A stretch of DNA of 41,775 nucleotides from a virus (lineage: Duplodnaviria > Heunggongvirae > Uroviricota > Caudoviricetes): positions 1 through 41,775 of IMG/VR virus record IMGVR_UViG_2675903658_000008; one strand, 5' to 3'. The position numbers and the translations under genes are program-made. Positions 9,493 to 11,340 of this stretch are shown in pieces. How positions within the stretch are numbered: position 1 is the stretch's first letter; each line of letters opens with the position of its first letter. A model generated the notes under the pieces. It was not told the DNA's origin. It saw only the letters and a program-made list of their open reading frames with translations, and did no database searches.

Positions 9493-9563
9493 ATGTGTTT
9501 AGTATCACCGCTAGTGGTATTTGTGTCAACACCGCCAGAGATAATTTATCACCGCAGATGGTT
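9493..9563 (-). promoter_or_regulatory. pL promoter with OL1-OL2-OL3 operators
   Basis: Three 17-bp lambda-type operators (TATCACCGCTAGTGGTA, CAACACCGCCAGAGATA, TATCACCGCAGATGGTT); minus-strand TTGACA and GATACT hexamers. Confidence 0.8.
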
Positions 9564-9710
9564 ATCTGTATGTTTTTTATATGGATTTATTTTTTGCAGG
9601 GGTGAATTGTTAGGTAGGTGAGGGATCAGAATTGCACTGTTTAGCAAGTTGTATCTATTAGTTTTCCAATAAATACAAATGGTTATGTGTTGTTGGGAAG
9701 GGGGATCGAG

Positions 9711-9741
9711 AGGCAAAGAAAACCCGGCACTGAGGCCGGGT
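9711..9741 (-). terminator. Rho-independent terminator after the rex-position cassette
   Basis: AACCCGGC-CTCAGT-GCCGGGTT hairpin followed by TTCTTTG on the minus strand, just past the 9748 stop. Confidence 0.5.
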
Positions 9742-9747
9742 TGTGTG

Positions 9748-10119
9748 TTACTTAAGAACGAGTCCGTTTAAGGCATCAAGGATTTTGGAAACATAACTTC
9801 CAAAAATGTAGGCGCAAAATGCGAACACGAAACTGACAACGACCGCAGATGCCTTAATGGTGGTTTTTGCTGAGCTAATGCTTGTCTCAATACCTGACAG
9901 ACGAGAATCAACAGATTTTATATCTGACTTTACCTCAGCGAGATCGCGCTTGATGTATTCAACATCAGACTCTAGCTTTGCAACTCTAGCCTCAAGCATG
10001 TTACCTCCGCCGTTTCCTCCACCATGCCGAGAGTATGCATCATCAGTGGAATAGTGTCCAATTGGGCGAGATATGTTTTGATTTGGACGAAGCTGAGCAA
10101 CCTTGTTATCTAAACTCAT
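9748..10119 (-). CDS. Coiled-coil protein with C-terminal transmembrane anchor (candidate membrane effector, rexB position)
   Basis: ATG overlaps upstream gene stop; Gly-rich N-terminus, heptad-like coiled coil, hydrophobic ASAVVVSFVFAFCAYIFGSYV near C-terminus; internal GGAGG before Met41. Confidence 0.6.
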   Translation of the reverse strand: MSLDNKVAQLRPNQNISRPIGHYSTDDAYSRHGGGNGGGNMLEARVAKLESDVEYIKRDLAEVKSDIKSVDSRLSGIETSISSAKTTIKASAVVVSFVFAFCAYIFGSYVSKILDALNGLVLK

Positions 10120-10543
10120 CGCGAACTGATCCTGTTATCTTCACGTCAAAAAACGAACTTTTTACATCAATTACTTCGCCTTTCTCAGGATTAACCAGTG
10201 ATGCTCTAACTTCGAATATCCCAGGCTTGATAATTTTCACCCTTGGGAAGTTAATTCTCATAGAAGTTGATACGATGGTTTCTCCATCGTTGGCTTCTGC
10301 TACCGTAAAAAACTTATGGTTGGAGTACAGTTTTGTGTCAATTGGTATCGGTATTTCTTGAGCATTGAAAACCTCAATGCCTATGGAATATTTTTTTGTA
10401 GCCTTAAGGCCGATAAAAAAAGCGCCAAATGACAGATCCACTTCATGGGAGTCTTTATCCATTTCATAGATAAGAACTGGAGTTACGGGGTTGCCTTCAT
10501 CCATCGCAATCGGAATGATATAAGAAATACGTTCTTTAATCAT
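10106..10543 (-). CDS. Hypothetical soluble protein (145 aa), rexA position directly after cI
   Basis: Starts 7 nt after cI stop; AT-rich; no recognisable catalytic motif. Confidence 0.65.
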   Translation of the reverse strand: MIKERISYIIPIAMDEGNPVTPVLIYEMDKDSHEVDLSFGAFFIGLKATKKYSIGIEVFNAQEIPIPIDTKLYSNHKFFTVAEANDGETIVSTSMRINFPRVKIIKPGIFEVRASLVNPEKGEVIDVKSSFFDVKITGSVRDEFR

Positions 10544-10550
10544 TTACGTG

Positions 10551-11264
10551 TTATCCAAACGTCTCTTCAGGCCATTGACTGGCGATAACCTTGCCTACAA
10601 TGTTGCAGTTCTCATTGCATGGGATGATTGGAAACTGCGGGTTAAGTGGTTGCAAAAACACTTGCCCACTATCTTTGATCAGTTTTTTGAATGTGAATTC
10701 ATCACCACCAAGTCTAGCGATACAGAAATCACCAGGATCAACAGGTTGCTCAGGGTCAACCAAGATTAACATTCCATCAGGAAAGCTTGGTTTCGATCCT
10801 GCCGGAGCTGTCATTGAGTTGCCTTCAACCTCAAGCCAGAATGCAGAATCACTGGCTTTTTTGGTTGTGCTTACCCATCTCTCCGCATCACCTTTGGTAA
10901 AGGTTCTAAGCTCAGGCGAGAACATCCCGGCCTGAACATGAGAAAAAACAGGGTACTCATACTCACTTCTGAGTGATGGCTGCATACTAACCGCTTCATA
11001 CATCTCGTAGATTTCTCTGGCGATTGAAGGGCTAAATTCTTCAACGCTAACGTTGAGAATTTTTGCAAGCAATGCAGCGTTATAAGCATTTAATGCATTG
11101 ACGCCATTAAATAAAGCTCCAACACCTGACTGCCCCATCCCCATCTTGTCTGCGACAGATTCCTGAGATAAGCCAAGTTCATTTTTCTTTTTTTCATAAA
11201 TAGCTTTAAGACGACGTGCGTCCTCAAGCTGCTCTTGTGTTAACGGTTTCTTTTTTGCGCTCAT
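10551..11264 (-). CDS. cI: Lambda-type CI repressor (HTH plus LexA-like autocleavage domain)
   Basis: 237-aa translation nearly identical to recalled lambda CI; flanked by lambda-type OR. Confidence 0.95.
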
Positions 11265-11274
11265 ACGTTAAATC

Positions 11275-11340
11275 TATCACCGCAAGGGATAAATATCTAA
11301 CACCGTGCGTGTTGACTATTTTACCTCTAGCGGTGATAAT
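11275..11340. promoter_or_regulatory. OR3-OR2-OR1 operators with divergent pRM and pR
   Basis: TATCACCGCAAGGGATA, TAACACCGTGCGTGTTG, TACCTCTAGCGGTGATA; TTGACT and GATAAT hexamers for pR. Confidence 0.85.

Follow-up and report, generated by a model that had tools for sequence, protein, structure and literature searches.

The 41,775-nucleotide window analyzed in this study (positions 1 to 41,775 of the IMG/VR virus record IMGVR_UViG_2675903658_000008, Caudoviricetes) contains a complete lambda-type immunity module at positions 9503-11565, which consists of the left operators OL1-3 with the promoter PL, the repressor gene cI, the right operators OR1-3 with the promoters PRM and PR, and cro. Both O1 operators of this module, OL1 and OR1, differ by a single base from those of phage lambda. 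Our best explanation, to which we assign a probability of roughly 0.88, is that the two substitutions belong to a known and near-neutral standing polymorphism among lambda-immunity phages, passed on through descent and recombination, with an approximately 2-fold weaker affinity for the repressor. The combination of T in OL1 with A in OR1 (OL1-T/OR1-A) is already known, as it has been deposited in GenBank for phage mEp332.

Single-base substitutions in the O1 operators

The OL1 operator of the window is TATCACCGCTAGTGGTA (9503-9519, minus strand) and the OR1 operator is TACCTCTAGCGGTGATA (11322-11338, plus strand), both placed by exact sequence match of the 17-mers. Alignment of both operator regions to the lambda reference genome (NC_001416), in which OL1 is TATCACCGCCAGTGGTA and OR1 is TACCTCTGGCGGTGATA, identified the substituted bases as 9512 (C in lambda, T on the plus strand of the window) and 11329 (G in lambda, A in the window). 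When read in the same orientation, both represent a G>A change at base 8, in the non-consensus half-site (TACCACTGG / TACCTCTGG), which directly adjoins the central base pair at the dyad centre. All strongly contacted bases in the outer positions of the half-sites are identical to those of lambda, as are the complete OL2, OL3, OR2 and OR3 operators, and base 8 in OL1 and OR1 is the sole operator difference. Going by the annotation of the homologous mEp234 record, each substitution falls at position -18 of its promoter (PL or PR), in the 17-bp spacer and not in a hexamer.

An initial annotation, made from the sequence alone, had noted that the same symmetric position is altered in both O1 sites and that the O2 and O3 sites match lambda, and the alignment and the operator table bear this out. 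The lambda bases that it gave, CCAG and CTGG, are those of the reference, which differs from the window at these positions. The range that it gave (9503-11335) starts correctly at OL1, but ends too early and cuts off the last 3 nucleotides of OR1.

The same O1 genotype is present in the lambda-homoimmune phage mEp332 (GenBank EF120456), which has TATCACCGCTAGTGGTA as OL1, TTTGTGT as the OL1-OL2 spacer and TACCTCTAGCGGTGATA as OR1. In this record the oL1 and oR1 sites are labeled 'Cro; CI operator', and the layout of operators and promoters is the same as in the window. The EF1204xx series of records, mEp332 among them, originates from the work of Degnan et al. (2007, Mol Microbiol 64:232). The mEp332 CI protein carries Ala2 and Asn70, like that of the window, and the N-terminal domains of the two proteins are separated by I54V only; overall they are identical at 223 of 237 residues, with most of the differences in the C-terminal domain. 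Unlike the window, mEp332 has the G>A-type change also in OL2, a variant OL3, AA instead of GA in the PR discriminator, and a different gene in the slot between cI and OL that holds rexA and rexB in lambda (the rex slot). Both mEp234 and mEp332 have been placed in the immunity group of lambda (PMC3442831), which would make the O1 pair compatible with lambda immunity. Primers designed for quantitative PCR of lambda orf61 are directed at mEp332 as well (PMC3442831), whereas the window carries P22-like virion genes.

Allele frequencies in phages and prophages

We surveyed the natural variation of the operators in IMG/VR with two samples, both of which are redundant, and all survey counts given here and below are among the loci listed. 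The first sample was anchored on OL1, with the other bases of OL1 and OR1 held fixed, and comprised 119 loci. Both O1 sites were present in 100 loci (97 from IMG/VR, plus the lambda, mEp234 and HK97 references and the window), with the OL1/OR1 haplotypes C/A in 53, C/G, the lambda type, in 18, T/A, the window type, in 18, and T/G in 11. The second sample was anchored on OR3-OR2, with OL and OR1 located by fuzzy matching, and was thus uncensored for the O1 sites. In this sample, OR1 varied at base 8 only, with A in 103 and G in 37 of the 140 OR regions (OR1-A approximately 73%), and no locus with a PR region had any other change in OR1. The mirror base of OL1 was T in 37 and C in 71 of 108 OL regions (OL1-T approximately 34%), and a single locus had a change at base 1. 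The lambda bases, taken as canonical in the initial annotation, are thus not the norm in nature, where most loci have OR1-A and many have OL1-T.

OL2 carried this G>A-type change as well, in 25-27% of the loci. Variation in OR2 and OR3 was confined to the centre (bases 8-11) and did not exceed 4%, while OL3 varied at base 1 (approximately 15%) and at base 11 (approximately 9%), and most positions in the inter-operator spacers were polymorphic. Natural variation thus clusters beside the dyad centre and avoids nearly all of the outer, strongly contacted operator bases, base 1 of OL3 being the sole common exception.

A total of 5,426 complete genomes of Escherichia coli were also searched, using queries of 30-34 nucleotides in which every 28-nucleotide megablast seed spans the single-nucleotide polymorphism (SNP), so that the matches are allele-specific. 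OR1-A was recovered from at least 177 genomes and OR1-G from at least 174, while OL1-T with G in the spacer was recovered from at least 302 and OL1-C with A in the spacer from at least 229; these counts are lower bounds that miss loci with nearby polymorphisms, such as a defective prophage in O157:H7. The alleles of the window are thus at least as common as those of lambda in complete E. coli genomes, and the OL1-T counts are probably inflated by the heavily sequenced O157:H7 TR01 lineage. The lambda-immunity prophage of E. coli O157:H7 TR01 (NZ_CP033605.1, 299931-307960) is located at tRNA-Thr and is defective, with a frameshifted integrase and an IS1203 insertion in the rex slot; it combines OL1-T with OR1-G, a variant centre of OR2 (TAACACCGCGCGTGTTG) and an altered OR2-OR1 spacer.

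Several named phages carry other combinations of these alleles. HK97, mEp234, HK542, HK244, CL707 and PhiR5_2 have OR1-A and CI Ala2, like the window, but OL1-C, like lambda, and each contains its own cassette in the rex slot. Shigella phage SfI and Escherichia phage ev099 share OL1-T with the window and OR1-G with lambda, and SfI further differs from the window in that it retains rexAB and CI Thr2. The O1 haplotype of laboratory lambda is a minority haplotype in nature. Since lambda also has the less common state at residues 2 and 70 of CI and at a number of sites close by, a difference from lambda is in itself no sign of a derived or functional change.

Independence of the OL1, OR1 and CI alleles

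The two O1 substitutions were considered as a coordinated pair, and this was rejected, as all four combinations exist and no positive association between them was observed. Fisher tests of OL1 against OR1 gave p = 0.23 for all loci, p = 0.054 after de-duplication, with an association in the opposite direction, and p = 0.37 in the second sample. The frequency of the double variant, OL1-T with OR1-A, was 0.23, as compared to 0.25 expected under independence. A tie between the O1 changes and the differences in CI was likewise rejected: Ala2 CI occurs with both OR1 alleles, in 35 unique haplotypes with OR1-A and in 11 with OR1-G, and Thr2 CI occurs with OL1-T. Single phages also mix the alleles, as in ev099 (Ala2, OL1-T, OR1-G) and SfI (Thr2, OL1-T, OR1-G). 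OL1-T and OR1-A are thus independent polymorphisms, neither coordinated with each other nor tied to CI.

Effect on repressor binding

In the measurements of Sarai and Takeda, as compiled in Table 3 of PMC2194778, the change of G10-C32 to A-T in OR1, which corresponds to base 8 of the 17-mer, weakened the binding of CI by 0.4 kcal/mol, which we calculate to be an approximately 2-fold change in the dissociation constant. The corresponding cost is 2.5-3.7 kcal/mol at contact positions in the consensus half of OR1, and reaches 3.6 kcal/mol at base 6 in the non-consensus half (PMC2194778 Table 3). Summed over the operators of the window relative to lambda OR1, these values give an additive estimate of +0.4 kcal/mol for OR1 and +0.2 kcal/mol for OL1, followed by OL2 (+1.1), OL3 (+1.5), OR3 (+2.2) and OR2 (+3.0). 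Both O1 sites score below every O2 and O3 site, and the filling order, with O1 first, would therefore be preserved if additivity holds.

The more than 100 wild loci can be read as a natural mutational scan of the operators, in which variation is essentially absent from the contacted bases, occurs around the dyad centre and is unrestricted in the spacers. This pattern agrees with the energetics of base substitutions in vitro and could be of use for modelling the lambda switch or for designing operator variants.

The module resides in a temperate phage, or prophage, that resembles P22. We propose that OL1-T and OR1-A are pre-existing natural alleles, neither new nor coordinated, that would have spread by descent and recombination. 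Base 8, beside the dyad centre, adds little to the binding of CI in the published measurements, and the intrinsic affinity of each O1 site would be about 2-fold weaker. Within each array, O1 would still bind CI most strongly, and cooperative binding to O1 and O2, looping between OL and OR, and lambda immunity specificity would be intact. The effect in OL1 would be similar to that in OR1, the effect on Cro would be small, and the change would be physiologically near-neutral.

Alternative explanations

Certain points weigh against a near-neutral standing polymorphism. The value of +0.4 kcal/mol was obtained in vitro with OR1 and the CI protein of lambda, and additivity is assumed in the ranking of the sites. 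Near-neutrality is an extrapolation for the OL1 variant, for Cro and for a CI protein with Ala2 and Val54. Furthermore, a G/A polymorphism at intermediate frequency in three paralogous half-sites (OL1, OL2 and OR1) is not specifically predicted by pure drift. Finally, none of the 8 unique haplotypes with Thr2 CI carried OR1-A, although close linkage, with approximately 70 bp between the two sites, is sufficient to explain why this combination was not seen. That absence could also be expected if the A at base 8 of O1 had co-evolved with CI (e.g., Thr2>Ala, Ile54>Val) or with Cro, giving rise to a shifted specificity and an immunity sub-type, and it is in line with such co-adaptation that T2A of the window is located in the N-terminal arm, which extends to the base pairs at the operator centre, and I54V beside the recognition helix. 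We nevertheless consider co-adaptation very unlikely, given that Ala2 CI is found with either OR1 allele, that ev099 and SfI mix the alleles within single phages, and that linkage accounts for the three-gamete pattern. The variant base is moreover in the non-consensus half of the operator, whereas the CI arm in the 1LMB structure is ordered only on the consensus half. In agreement with this, coordinates for the arm are missing on the non-consensus half (PMC2194778). Also, mEp332 has the same O1 pair, with an N-terminal CI domain that is I54V apart, and belongs to the immunity group of lambda (PMC3442831).

The intermediate frequencies could instead reflect adaptive tuning, whereby selection maintains the G/A alleles at base 8 of OL1, OL2 and OR1 so as to set the repression strength or the induction threshold for each host or background. 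Three paralogous half-sites do share this polymorphism, at frequencies of 27-74%, although the contacted bases are essentially invariant, and the measured effect of +0.4 kcal/mol is small yet non-zero (PMC2194778). However, purifying selection on the contacted bases combined with drift at a weakly constrained base fits the pattern equally well, the sites are unassociated with each other, with no evidence of an association with the phage backbone, and a 2-fold change in affinity would likely be buffered by cooperativity and looping, all of which makes tuning unlikely. It is exceedingly improbable that the substitutions are operator-constitutive mutations of the virulence type that enable escape from repression. 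Like the classical mutations of this class in lambda, they are single-base changes inside the O1 operators, the main repression sites of PL and PR, but the classical mutations by definition strongly reduce repressor binding, whereas the cost here is about 0.4 kcal/mol as compared to more than 2.5 kcal/mol at contact positions (PMC2194778). In addition, the alleles are present in integrated prophages of hundreds of genomes and in temperate phages kept as stable lysogens (PMC3442831), and the ranking of O1 above O2 and O3 is preserved in the additive estimate. The chance that the substitutions are artefacts of sequencing or assembly is negligible, since a separate complete genome contains the same 2.3-kb region without any difference and the alleles are seen again in hundreds of other genomes and viral contigs.

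A further hypothesis, which we regard as doubtful, concerns the origin of the alleles: the G/A toggles in OL1, OL2 and OR1 might be recurrent conversions by very-short-patch (Vsr) repair, possibly kept at intermediate frequency by selection because they would adjust, in a quantitative manner, how strongly wild lambda-immunity phages are repressed or how readily they are induced. All three polymorphic half-sites interconvert CTAG and CCAG/CTGG, which is the sequence context of Vsr mismatch repair in E. coli, a process first seen in lambda cI crosses. Such toggles account for 4 of the 120 common SNPs in the cI-cro block, as compared to about 1.2 expected. When the toggles in OL are included, CTAG-toggling SNPs also showed more four-gamete incompatibility with neighbours within 60 bp than the remaining SNPs (means of 0.29-0.48 versus 0.18-0.22, p = 0.017, for n = 6 and with allele frequency uncontrolled). 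As a sign of Vsr origin, this excess and incompatibility are suggestive at most.

The CI and Cro proteins

The cI gene (10551-11264, minus strand) encodes a repressor of 237 amino acids, of which 225 (95%) are identical to lambda CI, and the slight difference from lambda mentioned in the initial annotation thus amounts to 12 residues. These include T2A in the N-terminal arm and I54V, while helices 2 and 3 of the helix-turn-helix (HTH) domain and the region of the VQAGMF cleavage site are the same as in lambda. The protein matches the Pfam families HTH_3 and Peptidase_S24, with an intact S24 autocleavage domain. Residue 2 (mature-protein numbering, here and for residue 70) is Ala in 59 and Thr in 13 of 72 loci, and residue 70 is Asn in 57 and Lys in 15; the window has Ala2 and Asn70, and laboratory lambda has the minority allele at both residues.

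The window also carries a rarer block of linked CI changes, found in 5 of the 72 loci, which consists of I54V and nine changes in the C-terminal domain (T154A, A173P, E175D, R196K, Y210F, M212I, S218N, S220N and V221I). The sequence coding for this domain is 87% identical to cI of the Shiga toxin (Stx) phages Nil2 and YYZ-2008, which suggests an exchange of the CI C-terminal domain across immunity types.

Cro (66 amino acids; 11365-11565, plus strand) is identical to lambda Cro at 65 of 66 residues, with V55I as the sole change, an identical recognition helix and a match to the Pfam family Cro (E = 2.5e-34). In its operator arrays, contacted bases, HTH and S24 domains of CI and recognition helix of Cro, the module has the features of lambda immunity, and its immunity type is predicted to be unchanged.

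Organization of the immunity module

The operators form two tripartite arrays of 17-bp sites that overlap PL, PR and PRM and retain the spacings of lambda, as aligned with lambda, mEp234 and HK97. In the left array, OL1 is followed by OL2 (9527-9543) and OL3 (9547-9563), both on the minus strand and identical to lambda in the alignment. The PL promoter (9501-9529, minus strand) was identified by a promoter scan and homology, and consists of TTGACA, a 17-nucleotide spacer and GATACT, with a predicted start of transcription (+1) at 9494. In the right array, OR3 (11275-11291) and OR2 (11298-11314), both on the plus strand, are likewise identical to lambda. PRM (11271-11299, minus strand; -35 TAGATA, -10 TAGATT) is identical to lambda and has an annotated homologue. 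The PR promoter (11312-11340, plus strand), recovered in the promoter scan, consists of TTGACT, a 17-nucleotide spacer and GATAAT, with a predicted +1 at 11347. The hexamers and the 17-bp spacing are intact in both PL and PR.

Lambda (NC_001416 / J02459) shares with the window the architecture of both arrays, each with three equally spaced-out 17-bp sites at matching intervals, as well as PRM and the hexamers of PL and PR, but it differs in having G in OR1, C in OL1, A in the OL1-OL2 spacer, G at position -5 of PR, CI Thr2 and Lys70, and rexA and rexB. At -5, in the PR discriminator, the window has A at 11342 (GATAATGATT) and lambda has G (GATAATGGTT). The first spacer base of PL after the -35 hexamer, located in the OL1-OL2 spacer at 9523, is G in the window (TTTGTGT) and A in lambda (TTTATGT). 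Both are common natural polymorphisms, in approximately 23% (11342) and 30% (9523) of the loci, and G at 9523 is strongly, although not completely, linked to OL1-T. A search of positions 8500-12500 against Rfam gave no match.

The rex slot and the phage background

No homologues of rexA or rexB were found between cI and OL, and no DNA match to lambda was found across this slot. It contains instead two overlapping and unrelated open reading frames (ORFs) on the minus strand (9748-10543), followed by a Timm-like intrinsic terminator at the end of the cI operon (9721-9742, minus strand), which was identified by a scan and resembles the Timm annotated in the EF1204xx records. The ORF in the position of rexA (10106-10543, minus strand) encodes 145 amino acids (phrog_5893) and is predicted to fold into an all-beta sandwich, with a predicted local distance difference test (pLDDT) score of 87.8 and structural matches to generic immunoglobulin-like or carbohydrate-binding-module-like domains; it had no match in Pfam or PADLOC. 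The ORF in the position of rexB (9748-10119, minus strand) encodes 123 amino acids (phrog_6136), with a coiled coil and a C-terminal transmembrane helix at residues 92-110. No Pfam match above the curated cutoff was obtained for either ORF, with weak matches to XhlA and FlaC_arch for the 123-amino acid protein only, and PADLOC gave one weak CorA-like match for the pair (E = 0.0046). No function was assigned to the rex-slot genes by Pfam, PADLOC or PHROGs. We consider the pair a candidate for an exclusion or defence system expressed in the lysogen. Prophages of Salmonella and Dryocola contain homologous ORF pairs in this slot, placed downstream of different cI-type repressors.

The distance between OL1 and OR1 is 1819 bp in the window, as compared to 2407 bp in lambda, and ranges from about 1.43 to 3.10 kb across the lambda-immunity loci in IMG/VR, because the rex slot holds differing cargo. 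The loop that CI forms between OL and OR must therefore tolerate a two-fold range in length.

Outside the immunity module, the window contains P22-like virion genes (e.g., at 17000-40500), including those for the portal, terminase, capsid, tail needle and DNA-transfer/ejection proteins, which are approximately 95% identical to those of the closest phages, vB_EcoP-720R6, Kapi1 and CUS-3. The early genes of the left arm form a lambdoid mosaic, and a pair of tRNA genes (tRNA-Asn and tRNA-Thr) is located at 18829-18984. The complete genome of E. coli FHI_NMBU_03 has a P22-like prophage, located at tRNA-Arg, that matches the window with 100% identity over a region of 2.3 kb that covers the immunity module. 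The window as a whole was considered as a copy of this prophage, and this was ruled out by the positions of the tRNA genes; the two are not collinear and share the immunity region alone. The presence of an identical immunity cassette in two different P22-like backgrounds illustrates modular exchange.

One of the IMG/VR records, IMGVR_UViG_3300018471_000084, contains a hybrid immunity region, in which OL1-3 (71-132) are identical to lambda and the C-terminal domain of the repressor (approximately 1647-2330) is of the lambda type, while the N-terminal HTH domain, OR and the gene on the cro side are unrelated to those of lambda. Judging from these sequences, the lambda-type OL operators appear to be mismatched to the resident repressor, and the record may represent a recombinant or defective element.

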